Origin: an uncultured bacterium
GTDB lineage: Bacteria; Verrucomicrobiota; Kiritimatiellia; RFP12; UBA1067
Direction: 5' to 3'
DNA: 64,000 bases
NCBI GenBank assembly: GCA_902802945.1
Contig: CADCOC010000002.1
Coordinates: forward strand, 9,853 to 73,852
Shown: positions 22,101 to 64,000 of the stretch, piece after piece
Layout: each line of letters begins with the position of its first letter
How positions within the stretch are numbered: position 1 is the first letter of the stretch
Program-made: the position numbers and the translations under genes
Notes under the pieces: model-generated
What the model was told of the DNA's origin: nothing
The model's database searches: none
Seen by the model: only the letters and a program-made list of their open reading frames with translations

Positions 22101-24685
22101 TCACGATGGCGCAGTTCGTGGACGTCCTGACCGGCCTCGAGGCTGCCGCACAGTTCAAGGTCGAGAAGAAGTCGAAGGAGCCGCTTATGTTCGAGATGGG
22201 CGCTTCGCTGAACTACATCCTCGAGGCGACGCTCCTCGACCACGAGTTCTTCAAGAAGTTCCTGTCGAGGATCACGATCACGAAATTCTCCGGAACGATC
22301 TACAACATTTTCCGCTACAGGTGGTACGCGCCGAGGCCTGGATTCCTGTGGGAGCAGGAGACCGGCAACGAGAACGACGGCTACGTCGTCCGGTTCGAGG
22401 ACTGGACCGAGCCCGCATACTCCGCCTGGCTCGACAGCGGCTGGAGCGACGGGCTGGCGAAGACGATAAACAAGGTGACGTCGTTCGTAGGCATGTCCAA
22501 GCGTGTCTCGCGCGAAAGGTGGTCAGTCAAGGAATACCCGTTCAAGGAGCTGAAGTGGATGTACGGCGACGAGAAGTCGCTGTTCTCGCGCTGGACGCCC
22601 CGCTACGATCCCGGCGGCCAGCACTGGCACAACTATCCCAAGGCCGGTAAGTACACGGTGCAGCTCGCGCCGTATTCCGACTTCGGCACGTGGCTCCTGA
22701 CCAGCTCCTGCGAAGAGACGATCACGCTCAAGGAGATGGAGGAAGAAGAAGAAAAGGAAGAAGAGAAGGAAGGGGAAAGGAAGTCCGAGGTGGTGGACGA
22801 GAAGGGTGACAGAACCCAGAAATCGGTTGACCCGAACGAGGTGGTCGGACCCGAGGGCGAGGGTGCGAACCGCAGCGTGAAGCCGGGCGACTGGATGAAC
22901 TACACCGTATACTTCGAGAACAAGGCGGATGCGGACGCCGCCGCGCAGGAGGTGTTCGTGGACAGCCAGCTCAGCCAATACCTCGACTGGAGCACGTTCG
23001 AGATGGGCACGGTCTCCATCGCCGGGCAGATCGACAACGGACTCGACGGCCTGAACGCCTACGACCTGATCGCGTTGGGGTCTGCCTCGAGCGAGATGGA
23101 GCAGACGAACGGCCTGTACAGGGTGCGCACTGAAGTCCAGTTCGACGCCGCGACCGGCGCCGCAACCTGGTACATGCGCATAGTCGATCCGTCCAAGACC
23201 GACGGAGAGCAGTGGCCGGACGATCCTGACGCGGGCATCCTCAGTCCGAACGTGACGGTGCCGGAAGGCGAGGGCTACATCACCTACCGCGTGCGGGTGC
23301 GCGAGGACGCACCGGGGAACGTGAGGATCGACAACTCCGCGAACATCGTGTTCGACTACAACGCCCCGATCGTCACGGACCCGGCGTGGTGGAACACGGT
23401 GTTCGAGATGGCGACGGTGCCCATGACGTCGGACGGCGTGACTACGAATCTCCGGTTCGTGGTCGGCGAGCCCTACGGCGAATTGCCGACGCCCGCGCCG
23501 CGCGACGGCTGGACGTTCGAGGGGTGGTTCACGGGGCCGAACGGCACGGGACGCCGCGTGACGGCCGAGACCATCGTCCAATCCGGCGACCATCTCTATG
23601 CATACTGGAAGGCGGTCTGTCGCCTCTACGGCGAGTTGACGGGGGCGGCGCCGACGACAGCGGCAAGCGAGTACTACGGCTACGTCGTGAACACGAACGG
23701 AAACGTGATCATGGGCACGATCCAGGTGAAGGTGGGCAAGCCCAACAAGAAGACCGGTCTCGCCGCCGTGAAGGCGACGCTGATCGGGACGGACGGCAAG
23801 AAGAAGACCCTCAAGGCGGCCGAGAAGGGCAAGGCCAAGATCGAGGGCGACGGCCCGACCACGATCCCGCTCGCAGGCGGAGACGCCTGCGAAGTGATCC
23901 TCGGCGCGAAGGGCATGGGCGGCACGTATGGCGCGTATGTCATCTACGGCGCGCGGAACGTGTTCGCGTCGAAGGACGCGGCGGACAAGTCCGTGGCGGC
24001 GGCGGCACTCGCCAAGTGGAAGGGACCGGTGAACTTGGCGTGGCGGCCGGACGCGACGGAGCGCGTCCCTCCCTATCATACGCTGTCGGTGACCATCGCC
24101 GCGAAGGGCAAGGCGAAGGTGGCCGGGACGCTTGCGGACGGCACGAAGGTGAGCGCGAAGGGGCAGCTGATCGTGGGAGAGGAATGGGGCTGCGTGCCGG
24201 TGGTGGTCTCGAAGAAGGCAAAGCTTGCGTTCAACGTGTGGCTGCCGGTGGCCGCGACAAGCGCGGCCCTCCCGGTAGTGGTTGGGCTTGGCGAGGACGT
24301 GAGGGTCGGGAAGCCGGGGACGTTGAAGGCGGAGGCGACGTTCAAGCTGGGTGGCGAGATGGGCGACGCCAAGTACGGGGCCTACTTGCCGGATGGCGTG
24401 CCGGTGACGGGCGGCGCGAAGTGGAAGCTGCCGAAGGCGGGCAAGGTGCAGCTCGCCAAGGACGGCACCGTGGACGCGGCGAAGGCGGGCGAGAATCCGT
24501 CCGCGCTGAAGCTCACGTACAAGGCGAAGGACGGTTCGTTCAAGGGCTCGTTCAAGGCGTACGCGGATGTGGGCGGCAAGCCGAAGGGCACGACCGTGAA
24601 AGTGACGGGCGTGCTGGTCAACGGTGTCGGCTACGGCGCGGCCACGGTCAAGAAGTCCGGCGGAGTGGCGGTGATGGTGGAGTAG
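10172..24685 (+). CDS. Giant (4838 aa) modular cell-surface protein / adhesin. It has a signal peptide and an N-terminal Ig-like region.
   Basis: ATG 10172 follows 'aaaaaggag'. Modules: 3x DUF1565/pectate-lyase-like right-handed beta-helix; Listeria-Bacteroides (Flg_new) repeats (GYTFAGWYT...WYARW); BspA-type LRR repeats at 15.8-17.3 kb; CarbopepD_reg-like domains; PKD (WDFGDGS); an acidic EEEEKEEEKE linker; DUF11 (VDPNEVVGPEGEG...PGDWMNYTVYFEN); a Lys-rich C-terminal region. Confidence 0.85.
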   Translation: MNTIIRKIGMGGGKTLVSLFSGIAKAARGAALPLLIAASAILSARGDGLAITPATLPDGMEGVQYDQWFTATGGGDSPSWQWYTVPASYATASSTYQVSGNETPLWEGQSQRGNVEYTLPFAFPFGGRMIDKVYVSPVGAILFEDDFIDDNYVRNSSLYYRYGIAVFWCETSKVEAYVDTNVANEVSFRFESFSTGTGTWAARATLKKDGTIRCSYRQTGNTFSDTTRVIGVAFSGNYLPVGAESDGIPATDIVFTTYGLPAGLQFSSGSWDPDTSLYRPRLYGKVAEACDVKFAVRVYDDNDSSVAATNFYAFSIVRNPNRPPVIDAFAPADTNEVIFINLGDTVNFNVAVTDEAGDPFDVKWEFLSRGNSYYSTPETVGTETNLVFEATQALYVMQDSDYQPLLRCTVSDECWTNIVTWKVNIRRDWHVDAAADPGTADGSADHPWPSPHMGGLQRGDTVFVAPGTYVWGPSDSTQIGIAGGVTFRSTGSAADTKFVFQKKGYIQARYYKNSTFQGFSFDGICFYNCDLVDCEIRNYDSANSYDGAIRGCSLLRCYVTGGTGKFHCYQTDIVDSTIAGNTINVPSTESAECRAVGKDCTLANSIVVNNLALDGVEANVYTDTTYSPTAVTNSCTIPAMTKLGPGNYEAQPTFVSLAGGDLRLRVGSACIDAGDPANNTGAYKGPGVEGFAVYAFTDPVRGIFSDGSELQVVAAGATAYVMVKPLADRAFLGWVTNGVEVAGVTTSELAIENIDCDYEVEALFEYREFWVNPTEADDSGDGTAAAPKKTIAAAAALAIDGETIRLAEGTFEPFALLESPKVTLLGAGPDKTFIDGGGTNWCVRLGSNATLKNVAVVNGKYTSWSSYAGGVTGGTIENCVVSNCVSSQSAGGVSGATVVSCLVTGNTTDQEYGGFGGGAYQCKVYNSTIVGNVHSFNCAGGASVCYLFNNIITGNKSNGGSDTYDVYDPKDANFSSSVSSNVAYSANLIGSDPWFVDAANGDYRLIAGSPAIDAGGEALGFDFEHATDLSGGRRIKNGIVDYGCYEGGVVTGAPAAPVATGSSAKAVKGIPFTWEAVPNAAEYRIYRGTANNVAAATLLGSTTATSYLDLSTTGGTDYFYWVSSYNTTYGESEKCGPIAVTSYADLKIETASLPAATEAVPYSVQLECSGNVGEATWSLPYTVVTRGEGSTFNGDVGVVVGDDWPEKDTSYQHNPIVTLPFSFTWFGEQYDKVRLSKFGALYFGVGTGVSVSWSPWAIDEEPKIVVNEGPYSSYYYVETSEFRVDSQADHVTIVWKGTCHGKTVEFSATLNSDNTVRLAYGSNEVGAYVAYSNGSADTVNTLYRAEGDFSNADDYVITCLPNESHLVLSEGGLLSGIEDDAGEYLVSVLVTDDANGDTAWKTFALTVNVNANKRPVIDAVTPDEDEVLVLAGDSQEFTVTAHDPESAALSYSWYLDDALVSTAGANWTYAPTDADRGRHSLVCEVADALWTNGQVYAEWEVTVGAKLYVDVVNGTTNGTGTAESPFKTLQQAESWIGGGETVFVAPGTYAPVRVWGGGMPDPVTFRATGSAAETIIDGGSTNICVDDYHCSKNFTFVGFTLRNGGDEDYAGTASYGVNLKDCVVTGCKSWRCTIYGANVENCQIYGNTALRHGAAVGFCNVVNSLIYGNTSGETGVVYRSTLDRCTVYGNTALVGGGLDGLSTADHSIVWGNTATADASTANYEPSTNGVQFTYSCTTPLPEGEGNIASDPLFVNAAGGDFHLADSSPCLAAGMGCYAEGGGEPVVTQFTVTFDANGGTCAEASRQVVSGAAVGTLPTPTRTGYTFAGWYTAKTGGTQVTAATTVTAAVTWYARWTELPPAYTLTIEDGVLKGYTGDLPATLAIPATVTAFGANLFKGATALTAVTGGANVTACGAGAFRDSGIWKAAPNGPVVVCGVLVGWKGTVPATATVPYGVKVIADGALAGAANLATLYLPDSLVSIGAGAFKDCTKLDDVFGLEDGVTVADNAFEGTLRNTFRFTWSGLVVTGFKGPLPAALVIPANATGIGVNAFKGQTTITSLTIEGENAVNVGAGAFEGCTALATATIGGGATIAATSFKGCAALTNLTVGGSATIAAESFKNFAALKTVSIGGDATIGASGFAGCTALNTFTAGGGATVGASAFEGCTTLETFTAGDTVSIATNAFKGCVALATADFGKVSALGESAFEGCSSLASLELAEGIEEIGAASFKGCASLKAIDLPASVTTIGVSAFEGCSKLATVTGGENVRVIRTDAFAGTAWYDAAPAEGFEEVSLGHVLLRVKGDVPASYEISSNVWTVANGAFAGVTTLTELYIGTEVVSLWDRAFAGCTSLGSVTIPSGCREFGDYLFDGCTSLTNVFFRGHAPTNDVPHLFAGTPETLKVRIKEGSRGWVYPGADSDYRPARWPYQTADGRRWQRVADDLNRAVYEPDDEPGVIRSVIVDGIITNDTIWVGGRVYEIQRSCSVKGNATLTVEAGAIVKLPFGRVYAYDPRGLNVYDSGSLVVNGTLANPVVFTSIRDDSWGGDTNGDGNRSEPYPSECGGVYVYSRDATVHATYAKFLYGQAVNTFSATACLMSYGRTNTLYGCEFSHSAMDGYFGCGRLENCVFTDCDRGLVSVDRGVVAVNCVAYGNRIGFFSHTSYMYITNCISAFNSEYGISGDGSAVFSTRSCLWTPGGENTRYKNGGKSWNTYNVDNIEADPLFLDAENGDFRISASSPCVDAAWGDVAPEYDYYEQPRMDVRFVENTGKPNAEGIYPDIGIYEVPGTTERPVMNLEVESVSFTPATVAPGETLAVTYTMKNAGDAAATGSIRDVVRIKSAANGGTMVAGTVTQNYSLETNAVATFTARVTMPAAPAGNWYVGIDVNPNRDVFEQNLQRNSMWTENTVEVTLPGLTTSSSTSVTIPAGTTKGWALIDLPAEGGVVTVTGANAAAIRAMVANGHMPTVVMNDAASFAQGTTTAVLVVPARAAGETMYLAVENTGISSATVTVKVEKLTTQLWSVYPEIAANVGDMGFTFTGAGLTATSDIRLGGIKAKSVTVVDSANVYAVFDIHNIAADRYYDVTADGKTLRDAVYINKVAKGPILEAKLELPERTRDNRIYTGYVVYENTGDTQMNVPMFIVKRGKGDTTTMLGAYDAETLTSNAVVVAGIGSTHPAGILKPGDTGRLPFKFKPVGDYNLSLRKWVKTKDDVAAMATRLNLRGRTVWNGDDIYYSALNVRNGTPVAGVSGWCLDSRTREPLEGIALVLVATNTEASAGTANRRAFSTTTDANGYFQFGLLPDGLYGFTASGRARVVSTATVEVSGQKDVNGVEVLALPPTRIHGYVVGSDGTPVQYGHVVLREGDMMIGETTETDGFGAYSFEGIGDGTYDVLAEAIGVYGAAIKTNVAVNVTNVDVRVDLEMPALASIAGTVTPGGAPVDGGIVSVLSLADGETTTVGVDTNGTYSADGVTPGECEVKYSGGGKFSRIALTVAAGENKLDIAAQAAPIFGATSARAFVEAGASFEATFCVREPSTNDVSYAWDFGDGSATVVTAAPVVSHEFTRTADENRFTVKLTVTRADGTSEICVVREAFSLLAPIETEYQDNAIILSVANRHNAGTLEFVDFDPNGAAEGTVMRLKGEAAIPLDGAVVMVGYIDEKTGDVTSGIRRIVSHTTGTDGVVTCTTEGEGLSAVFKQIGVSTSDALEVTPEEEQESVAFKVKYANKFKGAISDAAAAAVSGLGELAKKTASHLNKGGKLIGDVNLSLGCKVGEDCLAGRFSTETAKIEREITVPTYDEPDSFYNMYSGNEWVPYRTKIYTNNVWRFTYTMHVDVTPYLQANGSFGVGLEKRTDKCELDLSKYLKKKKDKNKKEEVQEVDAGPEVPIVIAGVPIAKLRPVLQFRPYLFGGVNGAARMNLRFHGDLAFTISVENDIRMPTASCAAPGFKIDKWIENVSDEFSGSFEGGVGVVLALKFTMAQFVDVLTGLEAAAQFKVEKKSKEPLMFEMGASLNYILEATLLDHEFFKKFLSRITITKFSGTIYNIFRYRWYAPRPGFLWEQETGNENDGYVVRFEDWTEPAYSAWLDSGWSDGLAKTINKVTSFVGMSKRVSRERWSVKEYPFKELKWMYGDEKSLFSRWTPRYDPGGQHWHNYPKAGKYTVQLAPYSDFGTWLLTSSCEETITLKEMEEEEEKEEEKEGERKSEVVDEKGDRTQKSVDPNEVVGPEGEGANRSVKPGDWMNYTVYFENKADADAAAQEVFVDSQLSQYLDWSTFEMGTVSIAGQIDNGLDGLNAYDLIALGSASSEMEQTNGLYRVRTEVQFDAATGAATWYMRIVDPSKTDGEQWPDDPDAGILSPNVTVPEGEGYITYRVRVREDAPGNVRIDNSANIVFDYNAPIVTDPAWWNTVFEMATVPMTSDGVTTNLRFVVGEPYGELPTPAPRDGWTFEGWFTGPNGTGRRVTAETIVQSGDHLYAYWKAVCRLYGELTGAAPTTAASEYYGYVVNTNGNVIMGTIQVKVGKPNKKTGLAAVKATLIGTDGKKKTLKAAEKGKAKIEGDGPTTIPLAGGDACEVILGAKGMGGTYGAYVIYGARNVFASKDAADKSVAAAALAKWKGPVNLAWRPDATERVPPYHTLSVTIAAKGKAKVAGTLADGTKVSAKGQLIVGEEWGCVPVVVSKKAKLAFNVWLPVAATSAALPVVVGLGEDVRVGKPGTLKAEATFKLGGEMGDAKYGAYLPDGVPVTGGAKWKLPKAGKVQLAKDGTVDAAKAGENPSALKLTYKAKDGSFKGSFKAYADVGGKPKGTTVKVTGVLVNGVGYGAATVKKSGGVAVMVE
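24248..24275 (+). repeat. In-frame palindromic mini-repeat R4 (GGTGGCCGCGACAAGCGCGGCCCTCCCG), copy 1. It lies inside the giant gene and encodes ...VAATSAALP...
   Basis: The 28-nt string is identical at 29413-29440. The core palindrome GGCCGCG-acaag-CGCGGCC also occurs at 62650-62668. Confidence 0.8.
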
Positions 24686-28803: not shown

Positions 28804-31800
28804 ATGAACAAAACGATTCTGTCGCTCGCGGTAGTTCTTACATCGGCGTGCTCGGGGTTTGCGGCGTTTCGTCCGCCCGCCGTGCCGCTCGTATCATGCG
28901 ACCCGTTCTTCAGCGTGTGGAGCGCGGCGGATACGCTCACGGAGAAGGAGACGACCCACTGGGCCGGCGCGAAACAGCCGATCTCCATCACCCTCACTGC
29001 CGATGGCAAGACGTGGCGTCTCTGCGGCCTCGAGCCGCAATCTATTCCAGCGTTGCCACAGACGGGCGTGAAAGTGATGCCGCTCCAAACCCGCTATGCC
29101 TTCGCTGGCAACGGCCTAAGAGTTTCGCTAGTATTCTCGACGGCGAAATTGACCGATGACTTGGATGTATTTTCGCGCCCGGTCACCTACGTGACCGCCT
29201 ACGTGGAGGGCGCGAAGGAGTGGAAGCTCAGCGCCACGATTTCGCCCGCGCTCGCGACGAACAACGACAAGGCGCAGATGGTCACCAACCGTTGCACAGT
29301 GGCGGGGCTGCCTGCAATCTCGATCGGACGGAAGGAGCAGCGTCCGCTTGCCTACAGCGGTGACCGCGTGCGCTGCGACTGGGGTTATGCGTGGCTCGTG
29401 GGCCCGAGCAAGGTGGCCGCGACAAGCGCGGCCCTCCCGCAGAGTGGCGGGGATGGCGTGGTTGAGGAATCGCATTTCCTCCTCGCCTACGACGACGTGA
29501 AGGCGATCCAGTTCTTTGGCGACGATCTCCCCGCGTGGTGGCGTCGCGACGGACTTTCCTTCACGGCTATGCTGGAGAAAGCCGAGGCGGAACGCGCCGC
29601 GCTCCTGAAGAAAATGGATGCGTTCGATGCAGAACTTTACGCCGATCTCGTAAAGGTCGGCGGCGAGAAGTACGCGGCGCTCGCGAGCCTCGCCTACCGC
29701 CAGACGTTCGCCGCGTGCAAGCTCGCGGCGGACCGCAACAACCAGCCGCTCTACTTCTCGAAGGAACAGGACTCCAACGGCTGCATCGGGACGGTGGATA
29801 TCCTCTATCCGCAGTCGCCGCAGATGCTGTTTGTCAGTCCTACGCTCATGCGTGCCATGCTCGCGCCTGTGCTCGTCTACGCCTCCCATTCGCGCTGGCC
29901 GTGGCCGTTTGCGCCGCATGACCTCGGGCAGTACCCCCTCGCCAACCAACAGCGCTACGGTGGCGGCGAGAAGGGGAAGAGGGAATCGCTGCTGATGCCC
30001 GTGGAGGAGAGCGGTAACATGATCATCTGCCTCGCGGCACTCGCGCAGATCGAAGGCACGGCCGAGTTCGCGTCGTACTGGTGGCCCACCGTCACGAAGT
30101 GGGCGGAGTACCTCGCGAAGTTCGGCTTCGATCCCGGCAACCAGCTCTGCACGGACGACTTTGCGGGACACCTCGCACACAACGCGAACCTCGCCGCGAA
30201 GTCCATCGTGGCCCTCGCCTGCTACGCCCGCCTCGCGGAGGCGCTCGGCTACTTCGACGTCGCCGCGAAGTACGCCAAGATGGCGAAGGACATGGTGCCG
30301 AAGTGGATGGAGGCCGCAAAGGGCGGCGCGGAGGGCGCGTACCGTCTCGCCTACGACCGTCCCGGCACATGGTCGATGAAGTACAACCTCGTGTGGGACC
30401 GCGTGCTCGGCCTCGGGCTCTTCCCGCAGTCCGTGTTCGACGCGGAGGCCAACGCCTACTGCCGTCTCGCACGCCCCTTCGGTCTGCCGCTCGACAACCG
30501 CAAGCTCTGGACGAAAACCGACTGGGAGCTCTGGTGCGCCGCGTTCACCGACCGCCGCGAGTGTTTCGACGCCATCGTCGACCGCGTCTATCGCTTCGCC
30601 AACGAGACGCCGAGCCGCGTGGCGTTCTCCGACTGGTACTGGACCCACAACTCGAAGTACGTCCACTTCATCGGGCGCAGCGTGATCGGCGGCGTGTTCA
30701 TGCCGATGCTTCGCAGCGGGGCGATGTGGAAGAAGTACGCCTCGCGCGACAAGGCAAAGACAGGTGTCTATGCCCCGCTCAAGGAGCGGGCAAGGTGCAA
30801 GATCATCGCCCCGGAAGGGCGTATGTCGGCGGACATCAAATGGAAGTACACCTTCACGAAGCCGCCGGCGGGATGGGAGCAGCCGGGATTCGACGATTCC
30901 GGGTGGCAGACCGGCGCGGGCGGATTCGGATTGGCCGGCACGCCGGGCGCAAGCGTCCGCACGAAGTGGGACACGAAGAACATCTGGTTGCGCCGCCATG
31001 TGTCGCTTGACGCCGTGCCTGCCGAGCCGTTCCTTTCAATCCACCACGACGACGACACGAAGGTGTGGTTCAACGGCGTGCTGGCCGGAGACTTCCATTG
31101 CTACTCGTGCGACTACGAGCCGCAGAATGTGTCCGCTGCCGCCGTAAAGGTGCTCAAGCCCGGCGACAACGTGATCGCCTCGACCACGTACCAGGACTAC
31201 GGCGGACAGTACATCGACTACGGTCTTGCGGCGTCCAACGACGAAGAGGACGCCTTCAACCTCGCGTCGTTCAACATCCGCTGTCCGAGTCCGTCGGATA
31301 CGGAAAACAATTTCTGGTCCAACCGCTTCCCGTACGTCGTCCAGGTGATCAACAACCGTCGTTTCGACATCGTGGGCATGCAGGAGCTCGCGCCCAAGCA
31401 GAGGAAATACCTCGACGAGGCGTTGGGCGATGGCTGGGGACGTATTGGCATCGGGCGTCTGCCGGATGACAAGGGCGAGTCGATGACCATCTACTATCGC
31501 AAGGACCGGTTCGAGTGCCTGGACACAGACACCTTCTGGCTCTCCGAGACGCCGCGCGAGCCTGGGTCGGAGTCGTGGAACACGGCCTGCCCGCGCATCT
31601 GCACGTGGGGCCTTTTCCGCGACAAGCGCACGGGCCGGAAGTTCCGCTACTACAACACGCACCTCGACCACATCAGTAACGAGGCGCGCGTGAAGGGCAT
31701 GAGAATTATCCTATCGGAAATGCGCCGCCTCTCGCAGGGCGAGACCGTCTTCCTCACCGGCGACATGAACGCGCACTACAAGCACGTCCCGGCGGAAGAC

Positions 31801-40182: not shown

Positions 40183-42914
40183 GAATTAGAAGGGCGGAAG
40201 AAGCGACGGAAGCGACTAAAGGGACTAAAGCGACGGAAGCGACCAAAGCGACTGCTAGGGGCTTTCGCAGGAGTCGCTTGGGTCTCTTGAGTCTCTTTGG
40301 TCTCTTGATTCCCATGGGGCTTTTTGCCGATATCGTGCATGTTTACGAGCGGTCGCTGGCTGGCGGCGTAGCCAGCCAGATGAGCGACCGTACGCTCGAC
40401 ACCGGCAATACCTACTCAACCCAAAGCGCCCCCGCGAAGAGCGGCTACATCTTCACCCACTGGTCGATTTCGGTTGCGCAGCCAATCGATAACCGCGACC
40501 GTTTGGGTCGGGCGAAAGAAGTTACATCATTCACGCTCTACGAGGAAACCACGCTCACGGCCAACTATCTGGCTGAAGGTGAGGATTCCGACAACGACGG
40601 CATCGCCGACGGCTGGGAAATCTATTGGTATGGCGACCTTTCAAAGAATGCTTCGAGCGATACCGACAACGACGGCTTCACCTTCGCTGAGGAACTCGCG
40701 GCGGGTACCGACCCGCTTATGCCCGACGAATCGCTTCCCGGAGGCATCGTTTGGCAGGATGGCGCGCTTGTGCAGTACAATCCCGACAACCTTCAGCCCT
40801 ATACGATTCGCAGCGAGCCGGAAGGCGCGCTCTTCGCGACGGTAAGAGACTATCTGAAGCCGGGGCAGGTGATACCTATACCATATTCAGGGACACAAGG
40901 AACGCAAGGGACAGGTTTTGCATACTGGACGATCGACGGCGTGCGTCAGGCCGATAGGCACGGAAGGGCGCTTGACACGCTTTCGGTGACGATGCCGAAC
41001 ACTGCAATCGAGATTGTTGCCGTCTCCGAGAGCGACGAGGCGAAGCGCAATTCGCTCTACTGGTACGGCACCGCTTCCGTTGCGCAGAACAGCGACACCG
41101 ACAACGACGGCTTCACCTTTGCCGAGGAACTGGCGGCGGGCACCGATCCGCTAATGCCCGACGAATCGCTTCCCGGAGGCATCGTCTGGCAGGATGGCGC
41201 GCTTTTGGAAATGAACCTCCAGCCCTACGAGCAGGTGCTAGGCGCAGTCGTTGGCGGGGCGTATTCGCAGGTGTTTACTTCGCCAGTCGCTGGCAACGCC
41301 GCCACGAGCGCGACCTTCGGCAACGGCGGCGCCGTGTGGCCGGTGGTGGCCGATGTGAATGGCGATGGGCTGTGGGATTTGGTGGTGTGTTGGGAAGGTG
41401 AAGGGGAAGAGACGCAAGGGACTGCACCGCTTACACAATCGCTGACCATTTTCATCAATGTGGGCACCAAGGGCAACCCCGAGTTTGAGGTTGATGTGAG
41501 CGGCGCGCTCGGCGAGCGCGCCCTACCGTGGCTGGCGATGAACTCGCCCGAGAAGCTTGCCGGGCTTTCGCTCGACGTGCCTGCGCCGGGTGATGCGCTT
41601 TCGGCCACCACCAACGGCACCGCGCTTCTGGTGAGCGATAGCGAGGGCCGAATCTGGTATTATAAAGGGACGCAAGCGACAGAAGCGACTGAAGGGACTT
41701 CACCAACATCCCAGTCGCTTGAGTCTCTTGAGTCTCTTTCGTCGCTTTCCTTCACCCTCCAGCACAAGGTGTGGGGGGGCTCACACGCCGGCTTTGCGCA
41801 GGGGCTACGGCTCGCGGCGGTTGACTGGGATGATGATGGCGATCTCGACTGCCTTGCGGGTACCGCCGACGGCAAGCTGATGCTGTTGCGCGATCCGAAG
41901 GTGGGGCGGCCCACGAACCTGAAGGCGCTCGCTGGCGTGGATAACGTGCTGCTCACGTGGGATCCGAACGCGCAGAGCCGCATCAGGGGGTATAGGGTTT
42001 ATCGTGCGGAGGGGGAAGGAACAGCAAGCGTACAACAACAAGGTGGGGAGTCGACTTCGGGGACTGAGGGCTTTACGCGGATTGCGCAGCCGCAGCTGCC
42101 GACTTACCGCGATTTCCCGAACGGCGGTCACGGGGTGACCGCCCTACCGGAATACGCCTACAAGGTATCATCGGTGAGCCGGTTCTACACCGCCGGCAAC
42201 TCGACGCCCACGGAAACGGAATCGCCCGCGACCGAGGCGGTGACGGCGCGGCTGGGCAGCGTGCGCTTCTTCTGGAACGACGCGGCTACGAAGGTGGGCG
42301 AGCAGTTCGAGGTGATGCTTTCAATAGAAAACTCGATGAACTACTCCGTGACTGGCCAGACTGAGGTGGTTGCCTACGATCCAGAGTATTTGACGCCCGT
42401 GAAGGTGGTGAAAACGGGGCTCACGGAGGAGTGTGTGATTGAAGAGACTCACGGGACGAAAGAGACGCAAGGGACAGGGACGGAAGTGACCGGCGAGTGG
42501 CGGATCACGGTGAGTGGCGCGAGCGGGACAGCAAGCGTACAACAGCAAGGTGGGGCGGTCATTTTGCCGGCTGGCGGCGGGAAGTTCCTTTCGCTCGTTT
42601 TTGAAGCGAAGAAGGAGGGCGTGACGACGGTCGGCGGTCGCGGGGCGACCGCCCTGCCGGCGAGCGATGGGGCGTATGCCACGGTGAGCATTGCGGCGCG
42701 CTCGGTGATCGCGCCCTACCAGCTCGGCGACGTGGATGGCGACGGCGATGTGGATGAGGCCGATTTGCGGCTTCTGGCGAAGCTGTATAGTTCGCAGGGG
42801 GGCGCATCTATCGATGACAATCAGCGCAAGGCAGGCGATTTCAACGGAAACGGTAAGCTCGACAATGCTGATTACCAGGCGTTGAGGGCGTTGTTGAAAG
42901 AAAGGGGACTTTGA
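40179..42914 (+). CDS. Large secreted protein with TSP3-like (DTDNDG) repeats, FG-GAP/VCBS repeats, an Fn3 domain, a cohesin-like domain and a C-terminal type-I dockerin
   Basis: Dockerin DVDGDGDVDEADLRLLAKLY...DFNGNGKLDNADYQALRALL. FG-GAP ADVNGDGLWDLVV and VDWDDDGDLDCLAG. Cohesin-like YDPEYLTPVKVVKTGL. The N-terminal signal anchor is encoded through 9-mer tandem repeats. The gene contains R1, R2 and R3 mini-repeats. Confidence 0.7.
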   Translation: MRIRRAEEATEATKGTKATEATKATARGFRRSRLGLLSLFGLLIPMGLFADIVHVYERSLAGGVASQMSDRTLDTGNTYSTQSAPAKSGYIFTHWSISVAQPIDNRDRLGRAKEVTSFTLYEETTLTANYLAEGEDSDNDGIADGWEIYWYGDLSKNASSDTDNDGFTFAEELAAGTDPLMPDESLPGGIVWQDGALVQYNPDNLQPYTIRSEPEGALFATVRDYLKPGQVIPIPYSGTQGTQGTGFAYWTIDGVRQADRHGRALDTLSVTMPNTAIEIVAVSESDEAKRNSLYWYGTASVAQNSDTDNDGFTFAEELAAGTDPLMPDESLPGGIVWQDGALLEMNLQPYEQVLGAVVGGAYSQVFTSPVAGNAATSATFGNGGAVWPVVADVNGDGLWDLVVCWEGEGEETQGTAPLTQSLTIFINVGTKGNPEFEVDVSGALGERALPWLAMNSPEKLAGLSLDVPAPGDALSATTNGTALLVSDSEGRIWYYKGTQATEATEGTSPTSQSLESLESLSSLSFTLQHKVWGGSHAGFAQGLRLAAVDWDDDGDLDCLAGTADGKLMLLRDPKVGRPTNLKALAGVDNVLLTWDPNAQSRIRGYRVYRAEGEGTASVQQQGGESTSGTEGFTRIAQPQLPTYRDFPNGGHGVTALPEYAYKVSSVSRFYTAGNSTPTETESPATEAVTARLGSVRFFWNDAATKVGEQFEVMLSIENSMNYSVTGQTEVVAYDPEYLTPVKVVKTGLTEECVIEETHGTKETQGTGTEVTGEWRITVSGASGTASVQQQGGAVILPAGGGKFLSLVFEAKKEGVTTVGGRGATALPASDGAYATVSIAARSVIAPYQLGDVDGDGDVDEADLRLLAKLYSSQGGASIDDNQRKAGDFNGNGKLDNADYQALRALLKERGL
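42126..42150 (+). repeat. R1 in-frame palindromic mini-repeat (GGTCACGGGGTGACCGCCCTACCGG), encoding GHGVTALP
   Basis: Family consensus is GGYC(R)(S)rGGGc(K)GRCC-GCCCTRCCG. Other copies are at 42636-42660, 42973-42996, 47245-47317 (an inverted pair) and 48799-48823. Confidence 0.75.
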
Positions 42915-42915: not shown

Positions 42916-44307
42916 ATGGTGAGAGAGATAGAGATGCGGAATACAACAAGCGTACAACAGCAAGTTGGCGGCGGTCGCGGGGCGACCGCCCTACCGTGGT
43001 GGCGTGTTGCGGCGCGCTCGGGGATCGCGCCCTACCGGTGGTGGGTGGCACTTCTGGCGATGGTTGTTGCGCCGGTGGCGTTGGCCTATCAGGTTTCAGT
43101 GGGCACGTATGTGGCGAATGCGGGGCGGCAAATCACCGTGCCGGTTGCGCTGGATTCGGCGGCGGGGCTTTCCTACGCGAGCGCCACGATTACCTACGAT
43201 CCGCAGGTGCTAGTGGTCACGAAGGCCGAGGCGGGGTCGCTCAAGTCGCTGATGGCGGAGGATTTCGTGGCGGTTGATACGAACGGCATGCTGACGGTCT
43301 CGATCTTCGGTTCGACGGACGCGAACGTTGCAAGCGGCTCCGGCTCGATTGCCAACGTCACGTTCGCGGTGCGCGAAGGGACGGCGGGGCTCTACTCCGA
43401 CTTGGCCGTGAGCAGCGTCGAACTCGGCGAGAAGTCGGGTGTGAAGGATGTCACGGCGGGGAATCCGGTTCAGACAGTGAGCGGAATGGTGCGCGTGATG
43501 GGCGAGACCGCCGAGGTGACGCGTCTGGAGAACGCCGAAATCGTCGTTGCCGATACCGCTTTGGGTGCGCTGTCGCTCAGCGCGGGCGATGCGATTCAGG
43601 CGAGCGATGCGCAAACGGCGATTCGGGTGTCCGGCGCGGTGTCGGCATCGGGCGCAATCGCCGTCAAGGCACCGGCGAACGGATGGGCAAGCGGAACCTA
43701 CGCGCTTCTCTCCACGACCACGGCGGGGTTGGCGTTCAGCCTGGAAGGGGTGGACGGCGCGACGTTCTCCACCGAGACGGCGAATGGCGTGACGACGTAC
43801 TACGCGGCGGTTTCCGTTGCTGGCGAGATTCCCGTGACCTGTGCGGCGGAGGTATTGTCCGCCGGGGCGAAGAACCAGATTCGGTCGCTTCTTGCCGGTC
43901 AGTTGTCCGGCGTGACGGAGATTGTCGTGTCGGGTCCGCAGGGGAATGTGGGCTTGATTGCGGACATGGGCATCGCGCCGTCCTGCACGCGCGACGGAAC
44001 GCGTCTGCTGGCAAACTATACGATGCCGGAACTGCGCATCACGCAGTTCGATCCCAAGACGGGGGCGGTGCGCTTCAAGGTGACGCCCGGCGCTGGCAAT
44101 CAGATCGTTTCTGAAATCGCAACGGGGTACATCCACATGTACGGCACGAACAGCCTGAGCGAGAAGATGAAGTACATCTCGCAGGTCGGATTCGACCTCA
44201 CGCCGTATCTCAAGGCCGAAACCAAGGGCGAGGGTACGCTCTACGTTACCCTCGGCACGCATACTTTCCTGAAAGTCAAGATTGAAGCAGAAGTAAAGGA
44301 AGACTGA
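42916..44307 (+). CDS. Cohesin-domain surface protein (N-terminal signal/TM, then a cohesin module)
   Basis: YQVSVGTYVANAGRQITVPVALDSAAGLSYASATITYDPQVLVV...VTFAVREGTAG is cohesin-like. Its first ~40 codons are built from the R3+R1+R2 repeat units. Confidence 0.6.
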   Translation: MVREIEMRNTTSVQQQVGGGRGATALPWWRVAARSGIAPYRWWVALLAMVVAPVALAYQVSVGTYVANAGRQITVPVALDSAAGLSYASATITYDPQVLVVTKAEAGSLKSLMAEDFVAVDTNGMLTVSIFGSTDANVASGSGSIANVTFAVREGTAGLYSDLAVSSVELGEKSGVKDVTAGNPVQTVSGMVRVMGETAEVTRLENAEIVVADTALGALSLSAGDAIQASDAQTAIRVSGAVSASGAIAVKAPANGWASGTYALLSTTTAGLAFSLEGVDGATFSTETANGVTTYYAAVSVAGEIPVTCAAEVLSAGAKNQIRSLLAGQLSGVTEIVVSGPQGNVGLIADMGIAPSCTRDGTRLLANYTMPELRITQFDPKTGAVRFKVTPGAGNQIVSEIATGYIHMYGTNSLSEKMKYISQVGFDLTPYLKAETKGEGTLYVTLGTHTFLKVKIEAEVKED

Positions 44308-46482: not shown

Positions 46483-49428
46483 ATGACAACAGAAAATACA
46501 ATCACGAAAAACAAGTGTGTGAGAAGTGCTCACGGCAGAGCAGCCATCCTGGCATTAGCCTTAGGGGTTGCGTCATGCGTGTTGGCATACGCCCCTGCGC
46601 CGGTCGTGTTCGATACGCCGGCCAAAGACGAGAAAGGCATCATGGTGCTCGGCAACGGCGAGGTGGGCGCGACCGCGTGGCTGGACGCCGCCGGCACGTT
46701 GCACACCGTGCTGCAGAACTCCGATTCGTGGAACGAGGGCGGACGCCATGTGAAGACCGGCGCGATCGACTACGAGACGAAGTCGCCTGTCGACGCGGGC
46801 ACGTACCGTCAGGAGCTTTCGATGGAACGTGGCGAGTTCGAGGCCACGTGGAAGAGCGGCGGAAGGGCGGTGTCGCTGCGGTACCGCATCCAGCAGGGGA
46901 CGGACTCGATCGCCGTGTGCGACGTGAAGGGCGCGCCGGACGTCGAGGCGAAGGTGATCAACTGGCGTCTCTATCCCGGCGGGTCGAAGGAGTTCGGTGT
47001 CGGCGAGTACGAGCTCGGCAACAGGTTCTGCGAGGGCGGTCCTTTTGGGAAGGTGCTGAGCAAGAAGAAGTTCACCATCAGCGCCGACCGTCTTGTGCCG
47101 GGCGGCTGGTGCCACGTGAACCGCAACGAGACGGTTGCCGACCTGATGAAGGTGTATGACTTCTACCAGGCGACGGGCGATCTCGGCAAGCCGGATTTGC
47201 TTTCGGACCGCGCGTTCGGTGGCGTGACGCGAAAGTATTGCGGCGGTCAGAGGGCTGACCGCCCTACCTCTGGTAACATCGGTTCGGTAGGGCGGTCGCC
47301 CCGCGACCGCCGTACCCTCTTCCTTACCGCGATCACGTGCTATCATCCGTGCAAGGACGCGGACGAATGGCTGCGCCGCACGAACGAGATGCTCGACCGC
47401 GACGGCTGGAACATCGACGGCGAGGAGGCGAAGCGCGCGGCGCACATCGCCTGGTGGCGCACGTTCTGGAACCGCAGCCACATCGCGGTCACGCCGTCCG
47501 AAACGGCGAAGAACGCGCCGCCCAAGCCCTACGACTTTCCCACCAACAGCAAGCTGCCGCTCAGCTTCGGCGTGGATTCCAGGGGCGGCAACAAGTTCCT
47601 CGGAACGTTCGCGTCCGCCGAAGTGTCGTTCGACGGGAAGGTTGTGTATTCGGGCGTCCCGAAGGTGGGAGAGGTTATTGCAACGGGCAAGATGCCCGTT
47701 GTCCCAGTTGCGGGCGAGACGCCCGCCACCCCAGCAACGGGCAAGATGCCCGTTGTCCCAGGTTTTCACTTCAGGTGCAAATTCACGACGGATCATCTTG
47801 AGAAGCCGCAGCGGCTTCTCGACAACATGACGCCCGGCGGAAGCGACGGTTTCATCGTCGACGTCTATCTCGGGCGCCCGCGCGCGATTTTCGGTCCGGT
47901 GCAGATGCACCACTCCTCGAAGATCGCGGCAGGACGCGAGACGACACTCGAGGTGAGCGTGTCGAAGTACGGTACGGCGGAGATCGTCGTGAACGGCAAA
48001 AGTGAGAAGAAGGAGCTGGGGCGTCCCGTCATCCCGCTTGCCGACGAGTGCGCGGCGATCACCACGGCCTACGCCGCGCAGCGCTACCTCACCGCGTGCG
48101 CGTCGCGCGGACGCCTCCCGATCCGCTTCAACGGCACGCTCTTCACGATCTCCCACAGGGGCGATCCCGACTACCGCCGCTGGGGCAACGGCTACTGGTG
48201 GCAGAACACGCGCCTGCCGTACTACCCGATGTTCGCCGCCGGCGACATTGACGGCACCGACGCGCTCTTCGACATGTACTTCGGGAAGCTGGAGTTCTTC
48301 AAGAAGCGCACGAAGAAGTATTTCGGACACGACGGCGCGTACTTCCCCGAGTGCATGCAGCCGTGGGGCGACCACTTCATGGGCTGTTACGGTCCGGAAT
48401 GCGAGTGGAAGTACCGCAAGGACAAGCACCAGTACCATCACTGCCACAAGTACGCATGGGTGGGCCAACTGGAACTCTCGCTCATGGCCATCATGCGCTG
48501 GCAGCACACGCGCGACGATGGATGGTTCAAGAAAAATGCGCTGCCGTCCATCCGCGAGTACGTGCGCTACTTCGACGGACACTTCAAGCTGGACGCGAAG
48601 GGCCGCTATCACATGTACCCCGCGCAGGCGATCGAGACGTGGCAGGACTGCACGAACCCGATGACCGAAGTGGCCGGCCTCACCCGCGTCACGGACCTCC
48701 TCCTCGCGATGCCCGACAACGTGGTCTCGGCGGACGACCACGCGTTCTTCGCGAAGATCCGCGCGCGCCTGCCGGAGCTGCCTACGCGCACGCTCGGCGG
48801 CCAGAGGGCTGGCCGCCCTACCGAGTCGGCGATCGTGTTCGCGCCGGCGGAGATATTCAAGCGCCACGGCAACGTCGAGACGCCGGAGCTCTACTGCGTG
48901 TTCCCGTTCCGTCTCAGCTCGTTCGAGAAGCCGAATGCGGAGATCGGCCGACGCACGTACACCGATGGGCGTTTTCATAAGCTCTACTTCGGCTGGGCGC
49001 AGGACGAGTTGAACGCGGCGTACCTCGGCATGGCGGAGGAGGCGCGCGAGCACATCGTCGACCGCGTGTTCAAGAACACGCCCACGCTTGGCCGGACGAT
49101 CGCCTGCAACGAGGAGAACATCGCCGAGCGCGCGTACAGGCCCTCCGAATATCGCTGGCCGGCGTACTGGGGCCCGAACTACAACTGGCGTCCCGACCAG
49201 GACGAGGGCGGCGTGTTCCAGAACACGATCCAGTCGATGCTCCTGCAGTACGAGGGCGACAAAATCTTCCTCCTGCCTGCGTGGCCGAAGGAGTGGAACT
49301 GCGACTTCAAGCTCAACGCCCCCGGTAACACCACCGTCGAGGGCCGCGTGGAGAACGGCGAGCTGAAGGATCTTGTCGTGACGCCCGCCTTCCGCCGCGC
49401 CGACGTGGTCAACGCCGCAGTGCGATAG
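46483..49428 (+). CDS. GH95-like (DUF5703 / alpha-L-fucosidase-family six-hairpin) glycoside hydrolase
   Basis: The N-terminal MVLGNGEVGATAWLDAAGTLHTVLQNSDSWNEGG parallels the GH95 LGNGrlGa...LNedtlW motif. The gene contains R1 copies and an R6 duplicated 27-mer at 47680-47761. Confidence 0.5.
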   Translation: MTTENTITKNKCVRSAHGRAAILALALGVASCVLAYAPAPVVFDTPAKDEKGIMVLGNGEVGATAWLDAAGTLHTVLQNSDSWNEGGRHVKTGAIDYETKSPVDAGTYRQELSMERGEFEATWKSGGRAVSLRYRIQQGTDSIAVCDVKGAPDVEAKVINWRLYPGGSKEFGVGEYELGNRFCEGGPFGKVLSKKKFTISADRLVPGGWCHVNRNETVADLMKVYDFYQATGDLGKPDLLSDRAFGGVTRKYCGGQRADRPTSGNIGSVGRSPRDRRTLFLTAITCYHPCKDADEWLRRTNEMLDRDGWNIDGEEAKRAAHIAWWRTFWNRSHIAVTPSETAKNAPPKPYDFPTNSKLPLSFGVDSRGGNKFLGTFASAEVSFDGKVVYSGVPKVGEVIATGKMPVVPVAGETPATPATGKMPVVPGFHFRCKFTTDHLEKPQRLLDNMTPGGSDGFIVDVYLGRPRAIFGPVQMHHSSKIAAGRETTLEVSVSKYGTAEIVVNGKSEKKELGRPVIPLADECAAITTAYAAQRYLTACASRGRLPIRFNGTLFTISHRGDPDYRRWGNGYWWQNTRLPYYPMFAAGDIDGTDALFDMYFGKLEFFKKRTKKYFGHDGAYFPECMQPWGDHFMGCYGPECEWKYRKDKHQYHHCHKYAWVGQLELSLMAIMRWQHTRDDGWFKKNALPSIREYVRYFDGHFKLDAKGRYHMYPAQAIETWQDCTNPMTEVAGLTRVTDLLLAMPDNVVSADDHAFFAKIRARLPELPTRTLGGQRAGRPTESAIVFAPAEIFKRHGNVETPELYCVFPFRLSSFEKPNAEIGRRTYTDGRFHKLYFGWAQDELNAAYLGMAEEAREHIVDRVFKNTPTLGRTIACNEENIAERAYRPSEYRWPAYWGPNYNWRPDQDEGGVFQNTIQSMLLQYEGDKIFLLPAWPKEWNCDFKLNAPGNTTVEGRVENGELKDLVVTPAFRRADVVNAAVR
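47245..47317 (+). repeat. Composite R1 element: two R1 units in inverted orientation (GGTCAGAGGGCTGACCGCCCTACC ...17 nt... GGTAGGGCGGTCGCCCCGCGACC), in-frame inside the GH95-like gene
   Basis: Read directly. The second half is the exact reverse complement of the 42973-type unit. It encodes GGQRADRPTSGNIGSVGRSPRDRR. Confidence 0.75.
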
Positions 49429-56643: not shown

Positions 56644-56647
56644 AGCC

Positions 56648-61707: not shown

Positions 61708-61729
61708 TCAAATTTCAATCGCCAGGTGC

Positions 61730-61758
61730 TTGACGGCGGGGCGGGGACTTGGTAAACT
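61730..61758 (+). promoter_or_regulatory. Sigma70 promoter TTGACG-N17-(TG)TAAACT upstream of tRNA-Ser
   Basis: Read directly. The extended -10 TGGTAAACT is identical to the one before the giant gene. Confidence 0.5.
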
Positions 61759-61774
61759 ATTCCCCGCTTTCCAC

Positions 61775-61864
61775 GGAGAGGTGGCAGAGCCTGGTTGAAT
61801 GCACATGACTCGAAATCATGCATACCGCAAGGTATCGGGGGTTCGAATCCCTCCCTCTCCGCCA
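61775..61864 (+). tRNA. tRNA-Ser (anticodon CGA)
   Basis: GGAGAGGTGGCAGAGCCTGGTTGAATGCACATGACTCGAAATCATG...GGGGGTTCGAATCCCTCCCTCTCCGCCA has a long variable arm. Confidence 0.8.
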
Positions 61865-61866
61865 AG

Positions 61867-61940
61867 GCGGGCGTAATTCAATGGCAGAATAGGAGCTTCC
61901 CAAGCTTCTTACGTGGGTTCGATTCCCATCGCCCGCTCCA
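61867..61940 (+). tRNA. tRNA-Gly (anticodon CCC), followed by a T7 run
   Basis: GCGGGCGTAATTCAATGGCAGAATAGGAGCTTCCCAAGCTTCTTACGTGGGTTCGATTCCCATCGCCCGCTCCA. Confidence 0.85.
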
Positions 61941-62621: not shown

Positions 62622-64000
62622 CCCTGCACCTGGACATTCTCGAAGGGCAGGCCGCGACAAGCGCGGCCCTCACGCGTGAAGCGGCAAGAGTGCCGCTTCC
62701 CCGAACGGCGGCTGCGTTTCGCGGGGAGCGGTCCGTGGGGGTGGATGGCAATCTCGTGCCGCTTGTCGGGGATGAGTTGCTGGAGGCGGTGTGCGAGGTG
62801 GTCTGGTTCAAGGATGAGGTCCGGTTGGAAGGGGAGTGCGTCATCCCCTCCATGCGCAATCTCCTGATGTTCCTTTCCGACGTGCGGACGCGCCGTTTCA
62901 AGGCGGGCGTGTTCCTTGGGGACGACGTGCTGACGGCGGCGGAGACGTTCCGCGCCGCCGCACGCACTGTCGCTGACGGCGCCTACCTGCCGCATCTCGT
63001 GGAGGAGGCGGGCGGATTCGCCGCGCGGTGGTTGCCGCTCGATACGTCGCGCGGCGCGTTCTTCGCGTGGCTTGTGGACGGCCTTGCGCGCTTCGGCGGA
63101 CGCACCCCGCTTGAAACGGGAGCGGCGCGTCCGGATACCGTCCATGATGCCTGGCTCTTCGCGCTACGAAGCGACGACGGGCGCATCGCGTGGACGGACG
63201 AAGACGACATCCGTGCGCTCATGCACGACCTCGCCGTGTGGCGCGCGCCACTGCGCGTCTCCGCCGCCGACCGCGCCGCGCTACGCTTCTCCCTTGAACC
63301 GCCAGCCGAAGAGGACGGCATCTGGCGGCTTCGCCTCGCATCCGTACCCCGCACGCGCGCTGGACTCGTCTCGCTCGGACAGGCCGTCTCCCTCTTTCCT
63401 CCGCTTGCCGCGCTCCGCGGAACAGAGGCCGAACTCGACCGTGCGGCGGCGGAGTCGTTCCTCCGCACGGGCGCGCAGGCGCTCGTCGGTGCCGGCTACG
63501 CGGTGGAACCACCGCCCGGACTGCTCGGCGAACATGTGGACGCCGAGGCCGACCTCGCGCCCGTCTCCGACGAGCCGTCCGCGCCCGTCACGACGAAACT
63601 CACGATTCGTGTGGACGGAGAGGTCGTCACCGAACAGGAAATCCAGTTCCTCCTCGACCAGAACTCGCCGTTCGTGTTTTTCCGCGACCGCTGGATCGAG
63701 GTCGACCGCGCCGTGTTGCGTGAGGCCCTGCGCGCGCTGCGCGACGTGAAGGGGAAGAAGGTGTCCGTCCACGACGCCATCGCGCTCGCCTTCGGACTCC
63801 GCCGAGCCGGGGGACTCCGCGTGGACCGCGTGCGCGCGCACGGCTGGCTGCGTGGCCTTATCAACGAACTGCGCGGTGAGCAGCGTTTCCGCGTGCTGGA
63901 TGCCCCCGTCGGTTTCAACGGCACACTACGCGACTACCAGCTCCGCGGCGCGAGCTGGCTTGCCTTCCTCGCGAAGTGGGGATTCGGGGCGTGTCTTGCG
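62615..64000 (+). CDS. SNF2-family helicase (N-terminal helicase-associated region up to the start of the SNF2_N domain). The 3' end runs off the window.
   Basis: The ATG overlaps the rpe stop (ATGCTGA). The window ends in ...LRDYQLRGASWLAFLAKWGFGACLA, the SNF2 DEXH-box entry motif. It contains an R4 core repeat at 62650-62668 (encoding AATSAAL). It is absent from the ORF track because there is no in-window stop. Confidence 0.7.
   Translation, partial: MLTLHLDILEGQAATSAALTREAARVPLPRTAAAFRGERSVGVDGNLVPLVGDELLEAVCEVVWFKDEVRLEGECVIPSMRNLLMFLSDVRTRRFKAGVFLGDDVLTAAETFRAAARTVADGAYLPHLVEEAGGFAARWLPLDTSRGAFFAWLVDGLARFGGRTPLETGAARPDTVHDAWLFALRSDDGRIAWTDEDDIRALMHDLAVWRAPLRVSAADRAALRFSLEPPAEEDGIWRLRLASVPRTRAGLVSLGQAVSLFPPLAALRGTEAELDRAAAESFLRTGAQALVGAGYAVEPPPGLLGEHVDAEADLAPVSDEPSAPVTTKLTIRVDGEVVTEQEIQFLLDQNSPFVFFRDRWIEVDRAVLREALRALRDVKGKKVSVHDAIALAFGLRRAGGLRVDRVRAHGWLRGLINELRGEQRFRVLDAPVGFNGTLRDYQLRGASWLAFLAKWGFGACLA

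Follow-up and report, generated by a model that had tools for sequence, protein, structure and literature searches.

A 28-nt palindromic sequence that recurs unchanged inside unrelated genes of an uncultured Kiritimatiellia bacterium is very probably a repetitive extragenic palindromic (REP) element. We analyzed a 64,000-nt (64 kb) stretch of contig CADCOC010000002.1 (assembly GCA_902802945.1), hereafter the window, and assign the 28-mer, with a probability of roughly 0.88, to the family of REPs and REP-associated tyrosine transposases (RAYTs) in gut and rumen Kiritimatiellae, with many intragenic copies. Intragenic REPs are a kind of element already described, and what is new is the member in gut Kiritimatiellae. 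It is mildly unusual in its strict frame use, its hot-spot turnover in surface proteins and carbohydrate-active enzymes (CAZymes), and the conserved REP cluster inside the RAYT gene.

The exact 28-mer GGTGGCCGCGACAAGCGCGGCCCTCCCG lies at 24247-24274 and 29412-29439, both on the forward strand, and a third match at 62647-62674 (+) carries three mismatches, none of them within the stem-loop. Its 19-nt core GGCCGCGACAAGCGCGGCC is exact at 24250, 29415, and 62650, and a search of the window for this core with up to three mismatches allowed returned no copy beyond these three. The sequence-only reading that preceded this work had described the identical palindrome in two genes, correctly as to sequence and with coordinates one position too high; its third core copy, at the N-terminus of an SNF2 helicase gene, is also confirmed. 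The 28-nt unit, which we call F1, folds into a hairpin with a 7-bp stem and a 5-nt loop (GGCCGCG-acaag-CGCGGCC) followed by the foot CTCCCG, with a fold energy of -16.5 kcal/mol (z = -3.0). Read on the complementary strand, the order is a CGGGAG foot, a 7-bp GC stem, the 5-nt loop, the return stem, and a 3-nt tail (ACC), so that the CGGGAG foot occupies the place of the canonical GTAG head of REPs. All six reading frames of the 28-mer are free of stops. As had been proposed, the three copies share the frame of their host open reading frames (ORFs), in which GCC GCG ACA AGC GCG GCC CTC encodes AATSAAL, giving VAATSAALP twice and QAATSAALT once.

Each of the three copies is a translated part of its ORF, not an extragenic sequence as is usual for REPs. 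Around copy 1, the GC content of third codon positions (GC3) remains at ~0.9 in the frame of a giant ORF on either side, up to the stop at 24685. Copy 2 lies in a GtaA-like protein with the Pfam domains DUF4964, DUF5127, GtaA_6_Hairpin, and Exo_endo_phos, and the DUF5127 match is interrupted exactly at the element. Copy 3 sits 26 nt past the stop codon of rpe (ribulose-phosphate epimerase) and was suspected at first of being extragenic; N-terminal intragenic REPs are known to require a check against orthologs (PMC3733652). Distant SNF2 orthologs (58-61% identity) that are free of the element nevertheless start with the peptide MLxLHLxI, which lies upstream of the copy 3 site; this indicates that the ATG at 62615 is the true start and that copy 3 is translated; the extragenic alternative was dropped. 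Since intragenic REPs form a documented minority class (PMC3733652), this location is compatible with REP membership.

Chance similarity within GC-rich, low-complexity DNA is excluded, as is an artefact of assembly. The genome is GC-rich (61-68%), and such sequence yields short GC palindromes more often, but none of 100 dinucleotide-preserving shuffles of the window produced a match to the 28-mer, in agreement with the earlier judgment that the identity is not accidental. Moreover, the same sites are occupied in the independently assembled contigs L110, L111, L122, and L125, and the reading frames are unbroken.

Comparisons with orthologs show that these segments are derived, that their presence varies, and that they gather at hot spots in which one hairpin family replaces another. 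The 70 orthologs closest to the GtaA-like protein (50-96% identity; several are Kiritimatiellae according to NCBI) include only two, P0001 and P0030, that have the KVAATSAALPQSGG segment of the window protein. Orthologs at 92-94% identity have AAKDGEA at the place of copy 2 and more distant ones have other long indels, and the site appears to be a variable loop. At the DNA level, 63 nt in the window stand in place of 21 nt in the nearest element-free ortholog; the anticipated comparison with orthologs lacking a 21-27-nt insertion thus did yield element-free orthologs, although copy 2 is not a clean insertion. Copy 1 falls in a C-terminal domain of ~350 aa that is common to many Kiritimatiellae surface proteins. 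The loop between WLP and VVGLG in this domain reads AATSAA[L/A]P in ~12 homologs, carries peptides from other hairpins in other homologs (NGQDARSPS, AAGTAAPH, GDAPYR, ATDGTSVVP, DATGRV), appears in decayed versions in some (AAASAAIP, DATRAALP, AASSTARP), and is short and hairpin-free in P0127/L114. The copy 3 site holds only F1 in the SNF2 ortholog P0241, two copies of it in P0244, F1 together with a hairpin of a second family (F4) in the window, and no element in P0242, P0243, and P0247. A fourth, polymorphic site is found in a GH95-like gene, where a block at 47666-47768 with two elements of family F3 (TGKMPVVP) in the window corresponds in strain L110 to a 55-nt block (9917-9971) with one inverted element of family F2 (VGRSPRDRR). 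The proposal of a recently active intragenic mini-element is upheld by these comparisons, in which most orthologs of two hosts lack the segment and hairpins are swapped at the third site. An ancestral, conserved segment, the alternative named as fatal to that proposal, is contradicted by most GtaA-like and SNF2 orthologs, which lack the segment. Recency is indicated only at the level of species or strains, by presence and absence among orthologs of 92-96% protein identity.

The 28-mer is also dispersed in unrelated genes of related genomes, as expected of a mini-element. A metagenome scan found it on 12 contigs, which, beyond the orthologs of copy 2, provide five further independent sites with a coding signature in the flanks, all reading VAATSAALP. 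Hosts in metagenomes include a GH5 cellulase, in which the element follows the signal peptide, and a CMD-cupin protein, in which it lies at a domain junction; one further hit, on two contigs (L118 and L120), looks intergenic. A genome scan for the exact 19-nt core, with one genome per species, gave at least 108 loci (L001-L108), which their flanks split into an alphaproteobacterial flavour and a Kiritimatiellae/Lentisphaerae-type flavour. Metagenome-assembled genomes (MAGs) of gut and rumen Kiritimatiellae, Lentisphaerae, and relatives carry the core followed by [N]CTCCCG as in the window, in several copies per MAG, often near elements of families F2 and F4; in the MAGs RGIG2765, RUG10619, CAKUGW, CAKTZI, CAKULR, UMGS1035, and CAMKJU, at least 2-8 copies of F1 each are distributed over separate contigs. 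The window itself holds three F1 copies and at least 12 copies of sister families in 64 kb. By a rough and noisy sorting on GC3 and ORF length, about half of the listed core copies are intragenic, and most of these use one of two Ala-rich readings, sense AATSAAL or antisense RAALVAA. F1 also forms tandem arrays: AATSAALPPTDDA is repeated four times with a period of 39 nt in L069 (6940-7075), and VAATSAALPP three times with a period of 30 nt in L124 (673-757), both periods being divisible by three.

The association of the 28-mer with putative transposase genes ties it to a REPtron and lends the mini-element proposal further support. On contig L124, one of those carrying the exact 28-mer, a gene at 839-1375 (+) matches the NCBIfam model NF047646 (REP-associated tyrosine transposase, REP_Tyr_transpos) with 81.1 bits (cut-off 80, E = 7e-23). 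Just upstream of it lie two inverted copies of the variant F1' and three of F1, two of the latter being the exact 28-mer, with one exact 28-mer at a distance of 82 nt from the gene; F1 copies are also present within the gene, and one more just downstream. This gene was found by using as query the RAYT protein of contig L046 (2968-3585, -), with which it shares 54% identity. A regular-expression search for the HUH and Tyr motifs had given no match, and the L046 gene came instead from a tblastn search with an E. coli YafM sequence, whose weak match between F1 copies on L046 served as a lead only and was then verified with NCBIfam and the PDB. In the L046 protein the HUH motif reads VIMPDHIHFF (PDHIH) and the Tyr motif YVRNNPV; among PDB structures the protein matches 4er8 (TnpA-REP) best. 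It scores 73.7 bits against NF047646, below the cut-off of 80, and 76.4 bits, in one stretch, when the internal REP-encoded segment is spliced out. Copies of F1 and F1' lie around this gene and within it. In each of the two RAYT genes a REP cluster breaks into the coding sequence, in frame and at a shared position, separating the HUH motif from the catalytic Tyr motif. This conserved cluster could be tolerated junk, or it could be part of the RAYT's control through autoregulation. F1'(-)/F1(+) inverted pairs occur at L124 639-697 and on L046.

F1 is one member of a larger population. A repeat search and a hairpin census of the window revealed at least 16 short GC-rich hairpin elements in four families (F1-F4), every one of them inside ORFs and in frame (Table 1). 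The element noted in the sequence-only reading is real and is no isolated case. Perfect hairpins with a stem of at least 9 bp number 18 in the window, compared with 0-4 in phase-preserving shuffles. The four families share a design in which a stem-loop is followed by a conserved 6-nt foot. F2, with nine copies at 41.5-43.0 kb and 47.2-48.8 kb, has the architecture GGCGGTCGC-ggg-GCGACCGCC followed by CTACCG and variants; on the opposite strand this reads CGGTAG plus palindrome, the signature of GTAG-type REPs. The coding signature runs on around the F2 copies in ORF 40173-42914. The corresponding foot of F1 reads CGGGAG, i.e., GGAG, on the opposite strand, and the CTCCCG foot is present in most Kiritimatiellae copies. 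An F1-like hairpin in the same giant ORF as copy 1 is possibly a diverged relative, and the F4 family adjoins F1 not only at copy 3 but also in L062 and L064. The inverted F2 doublet in the DUF5703_N domain lies in a 74-nt stretch that folds at -55.8 kcal/mol.

Table 1. Hairpin elements of the window (positions on the forward strand; all in frame inside ORFs).
Element	Position	Strand	Architecture	Encoded peptide	Context
F1 REP, copy 1	24247..24274	+	GGT-GGCCGCG-acaag-CGCGGCC-CTCCCG	VAATSAALP (aa 4723-4731)	C-terminal domain, 4867-aa surface protein, ORF 10082-24685
F1 REP, copy 2	29412..29439	+	identical 28-mer	VAATSAALP (aa 215-223)	putative variable loop, DUF5127 domain, GtaA-like/EEP ORF 28771-32094
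F1 REP, copy 3	62647..62674	+	GCA-core-CTCACG	QAATSAALT (aa 12-20)	N-terminal extension, SNF2 helicase ORF starting 62615
F4 hairpin	62678..62705	+	GAAGCGGCA-agag-TGCCGCTTC-CCCGAA	EAARVPLPR	directly 3' of copy 3; missing from closest SNF2 orthologs P0241 and P0244
F1-like hairpin	24049..24074	+	GGACGCG-acggag-CGCGTCC-CTCCCT		same giant ORF as copy 1
F2 REP, GTAG-footed	41500..41528	+	GGCGCGCTC-ggc-GAGCGCGCC-CTACCG	GALGERALP	ORF 40173-42914
F2 REP	42122..42149	+	GGCGGTCAC-ggg-GTGACCGCC-CTACCG	GGHGVTALP	
F2 REP	42632..42659	+	GGCGGTCGC-ggg-GCGACCGCC-CTGCCG	GGRGATALP	
F2 REP, degenerate	42693..42721	+		AARSVIAPYQ frame	
F2 REP	42969..42996	+		GGRGATALP	close to start of cohesin ORF 42916-44307
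F2 REP, degenerate	43009..43037	+		AARSGIAPYR	
F2 doublet, inverted, REPIN-like	47242..47312	47242-47269 +, 47285-47312 -		GGQRADRPTSGNIGSVGRSPRDRR	DUF5703_N domain, ORF 46483-49428; conserved in strain L110
F3 elements (two)	47681..47761 (at 47681 and 47735)	+	CAACGGGCA-aga-TGCCCGTTG-TCCCAG	TGKMPVVP	small hairpin in between
F2 REP	48796..48823	+	GGCGGCCAG-aggg-CTGGCCGCC-CTACCG	GGQRAGRPT	ORF 46483-49428

Other repeats occur in the neighborhood of the F2 copies. A 26-nt repeat, ACAGCAAGCGTACAACAGCAAGGTGG, is present three times (42021-42046, 42528-42553, 42943-42968); it ends ~75 nt ahead of the F2 copies at 42122 and 42632 and abuts the one at 42969, a spacing that suggests a larger composite repeat unit in cohesin/dockerin genes. 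Two long imperfect palindromes (40196-40324 and 41665-41756), in which 9-nt tandem units (RAAGCGACN)n face (AGTCNCTTN)n, lie inside or at the start of ORF 40173-42914, with a dip of the coding signature at both; they are a different, larger kind of palindromic insert or a regulatory region. The surrounding segment at 34434-44363 (~9.9 kb) is missing from strain contig L110, which is otherwise syntenic. It encodes an AAA_15/AbiEii-like ATPase, DUF3791/DUF3990 pairs, a BspA-type leucine-rich repeat protein, and TSP3/cohesin/dockerin proteins, and GC falls to 0.51-0.53 across 34-40 kb within it; the block looks like a strain-specific island. Elsewhere, a 50-nt direct repeat (58461-58510 and 58646-58695, 96% identical) straddles the start of ORF 58597-60426 (HEAT/3-keto-disaccharide hydrolase), and a 12-bp perfect hairpin followed by a T run at 1406-1435, after ORF 970-1398, is an ordinary intrinsic-terminator-like site, unlike the REP families.

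These properties can be set against those of known systems. REPs are GC-rich imperfect palindromes of 20-40 nt that fold into a stem-loop, as F1 does. Their head is GTAG, or GTRG or GTGG; the F1 foot reads GGAG, and the co-resident F2 family reads CGGTAG. The RAYT gene on L124 is flanked by cognate REPs, the L046 gene scoring just under the cut-off, and inverted doublets of the kind called REPINs are found on L124, on L046, and in the window (F2, 47242-47312). No flanks are duplicated at any copy, as a target-site duplication would be, and the 28-nt unit is shorter than miniature inverted-repeat transposable elements, which are 70-300 bp long with terminal inverted repeats; the element does not belong to that class.

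The closest parallel comes from a survey of GTAG- and CGTC-tagged REPs and their dimers, in which GTAG REPs were linked to RAYT genes and CGTC REPs had no linked RAYT (Di Nocera, De Gregorio and Rocco 2013, BMC Genomics 14:522; PMC3733652). In that survey, intragenic in-frame REPs were most numerous in Opitutus terrae, a bacterium of the Planctomycetes-Verrucomicrobia-Chlamydiae (PVC) superphylum, with 70 entries; identical REP peptides recurred there in unrelated proteins, including glycoside hydrolases and helicases, and orthologous genes could bear different REPs at the same site (PMC3733652). The O. terrae elements resemble those described here in being 25-30-nt hairpins with a conserved foot and a short tail, in belonging to several co-resident families within one PVC bacterium, in occurring as singletons and inverted dimers, and in being RAYT-linked, with many in-frame copies in unrelated proteins and a preference for N-terminal and loop positions. 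The recurring peptides are VAGVADPGPGSASPA, GTGVPPV, and VGPALAAG in O. terrae and VAATSAALP and GGRGATALP here. The differences lie in the clade (gut and rumen Kiritimatiellae), the stem-loop sequence, the F1 foot (GGAG rather than GTAG), the intragenic location of every REP-like element in the window, and the REP cluster that the RAYT genes hold in their own coding sequence.

The REP-RAYT systems and REPINs of E. coli and Pseudomonas (Nunvar 2010; Bertels and Rainey 2011, as cited in PMC3733652) are alike in the HUH/Y1 enzyme (NF047646; best PDB match 4er8), the flanking cognate REPs in both orientations, and the inverted doublets. They differ in that nearly all of their REPs lie outside genes, with GT[A/G]G as the head, and the RAYTs reported here are putative. 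Rickettsia palindromic elements (RPEs; Ogata et al. 2000, as cited in PMC3733652) are likewise palindromic selfish repeats that lie in frame in functional protein genes and add surface peptide segments. F1, at 28 nt and in a host that is not Rickettsia, shares the in-frame insertion but not the length or the host clade. RPE-1 elements are on the order of 100 nt or more and are restricted to Rickettsia, and we know of no dedicated transposase for RPEs. Finally, the CGTC-tagged REPs that are widespread in Alphaproteobacteria (Methylocystis, Rhodospirillales, and others) have the identical 19-nt stem-loop core GGCCGCGACAAGCGCGGCC. Their flanks differ (cgtggat-core-atgacg, with the CGTC tag and a longer palindrome) from the CTCCCG or CTCACG of the window copies, and this form (e.g., L011, L015, L042, and L070) is confined to Alphaproteobacteria among the matches listed. 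The shared core may reflect convergence, common descent, or transfer.

CRISPR arrays, diversity-generating retroelements, and known structured RNAs were considered and are unsupported by spacing, context, or an Rfam scan, which returned five tRNAs only (three genes at 61624-61937, +, and two at 56572-56732, -). As regards CRISPR, the copies lie 5.2 and 33 kb apart in genes, the tandem arrays elsewhere have identical "spacers," and Pfam scans gave no cas-type domain.

A mechanism can be proposed by analogy with IS200/IS605-type Y1 transposases and E. coli TnpA-REP, which are established systems. The RAYT would bind the folded hairpin on single-stranded DNA, read the foot, and cut and rejoin the DNA, so that copies would spread slowly to new sites. 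Within a gene, a copy would persist only if the net change preserved the frame (the conserved unit is 27 nt, or nine codons, plus one base), if it brought no new stop codon (the 28-mer is open in six frames), if it fell in a loop, linker, or terminus tolerant of ~9 extra residues, and if its peptide were harmless. The last condition would account for the dominance of the Ala-rich VAATSAALP, the Ala-rich frame presumably being the least harmful. Homologous recombination between strains would then shuffle filled and empty alleles.

The strict frame use invites another explanation, namely that the hairpin or its peptide is kept by selection for a host function and is not a selfish insertion; candidates are an mRNA structure with a role in ribosome pausing or in blocking exonucleases, a site on RNA or DNA to which a protein binds, and a flexible Ala-rich linker. 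All seven independent sites of the exact 28-mer with a coding signature (two in the window and five in metagenomes) share one frame and orientation although six frames are open; under equal use of the six frames, and given the first site, the chance of this is (1/6)^6, or ~2e-5. The hairpin is stable, the arrays remain in frame with periods of 30 nt and 39 nt, and between the window and L110/L111 the 28-mer shows no difference, against 7 differences in the 20 nt that follow. Against these observations stand the absence of the segment from most close orthologs of otherwise conserved proteins, its free decay at the adhesin site (copy 1), the substitution of different hairpin families at one site, the lack of any functional relation among the hosts, and the clustering of copies about the transposase gene, and we regard a host function as distinctly improbable. 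The frame and orientation bias is here attributed, provisionally, to selection; its orientation component may equally come from a replication-strand bias of Y1 transposases, and nearly all genes and elements of the window lie on the strand of positive GC skew. We are hardly less doubtful of a more far-reaching idea, in which the REP/RAYT system acts here as a transposase-driven generator of protein loop variation, a codon-length (27-nt) module being inserted, swapped, and tandemly amplified with one frame preferred at recurrent loop sites; secreted or surface proteins (such as adhesins, CAZymes, and cohesin/dockerin proteins) are numerous among the hosts.

A further possibility dispenses with transposition and invokes gene conversion or illegitimate recombination between short GC-rich palindromes that act as hot spots. 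Elements do turn over at fixed sites, and the GtaA-like gene (28771-32094), when compared with L109, L110, and L122, is a strain mosaic with several identity switches, its best-matching partner changing exactly at copy 2. The window is 85% identical to the element-free L109 upstream of copy 2 and 92-96% downstream, whereas identity to the element-bearing L110 is 89-92% upstream and 84-89% downstream. This switch implies that homologous recombination also moves filled alleles between strains. However, further junctions in the same gene are distant from any element, the identity between copies 1 and 2 ends abruptly at the borders of the 28-mer, and their flanks are not homologous, which leaves ordinary conversion without a substrate. 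The same 28-mer is found, in other samples, in at least five more unrelated gene contexts, and it also adjoins RAYT genes. We consider conversion alone very unlikely. The suggestion of a gene-conversion hotspot is thus not needed to explain the copies, and the check that had been suggested, whether the copies coincide with recombination breakpoints, finds such a junction at copy 2.

Several observations nevertheless weigh against assigning the 28-mer to the REP/RAYT family. No RAYT turned up in the 64-kb window, either in Pfam scans of 30 ORFs or by tblastn with the L046 protein as query; the link to a RAYT therefore stands on two contigs, both from other samples. The F1 foot is GGAG (CGGGAG) and not the canonical GTAG, which is present only in the co-resident F2. 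No clean pair of filled and empty sites was found at copy 1 or copy 2. Copy 2 is a 63-for-21-nt replacement, and the copy 1 loop varies in all homologs. The frame and orientation bias exceeds what random insertion into six open frames would produce, and the mosaic of the GtaA-like gene shows that part of the spread between strains is recombination, not transposition. The genome scan, finally, is unusable as an argument from conservation because its loci were chosen by exact core match; for the same reason, the conserved core in the orthologous pairs L072/L077 and L021/L066 was not taken to indicate selection.

As a member of the REP/RAYT family, the 28-mer explains a puzzling exact identity between unrelated genes without a new kind of system, and it extends REP/RAYT systems to uncultured Kiritimatiellae of gut and rumen, above all their intragenic, protein-decorating class, for which Opitutus and Rickettsia were the known cases. 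For annotation, segments such as VAATSAALP, GGRGATALP, GERALP, TGKMPVVP, and EAARVPLPR in the proteins of these MAGs are to be read as repeat-derived. They flag loops prone to indels and candidate junctions of recombination, and alignments and domain calls can be led astray by them. With its very high intragenic fraction and strict frame bias, this clade is well suited to the study of how proteins filter, or gain from, selfish hairpins.

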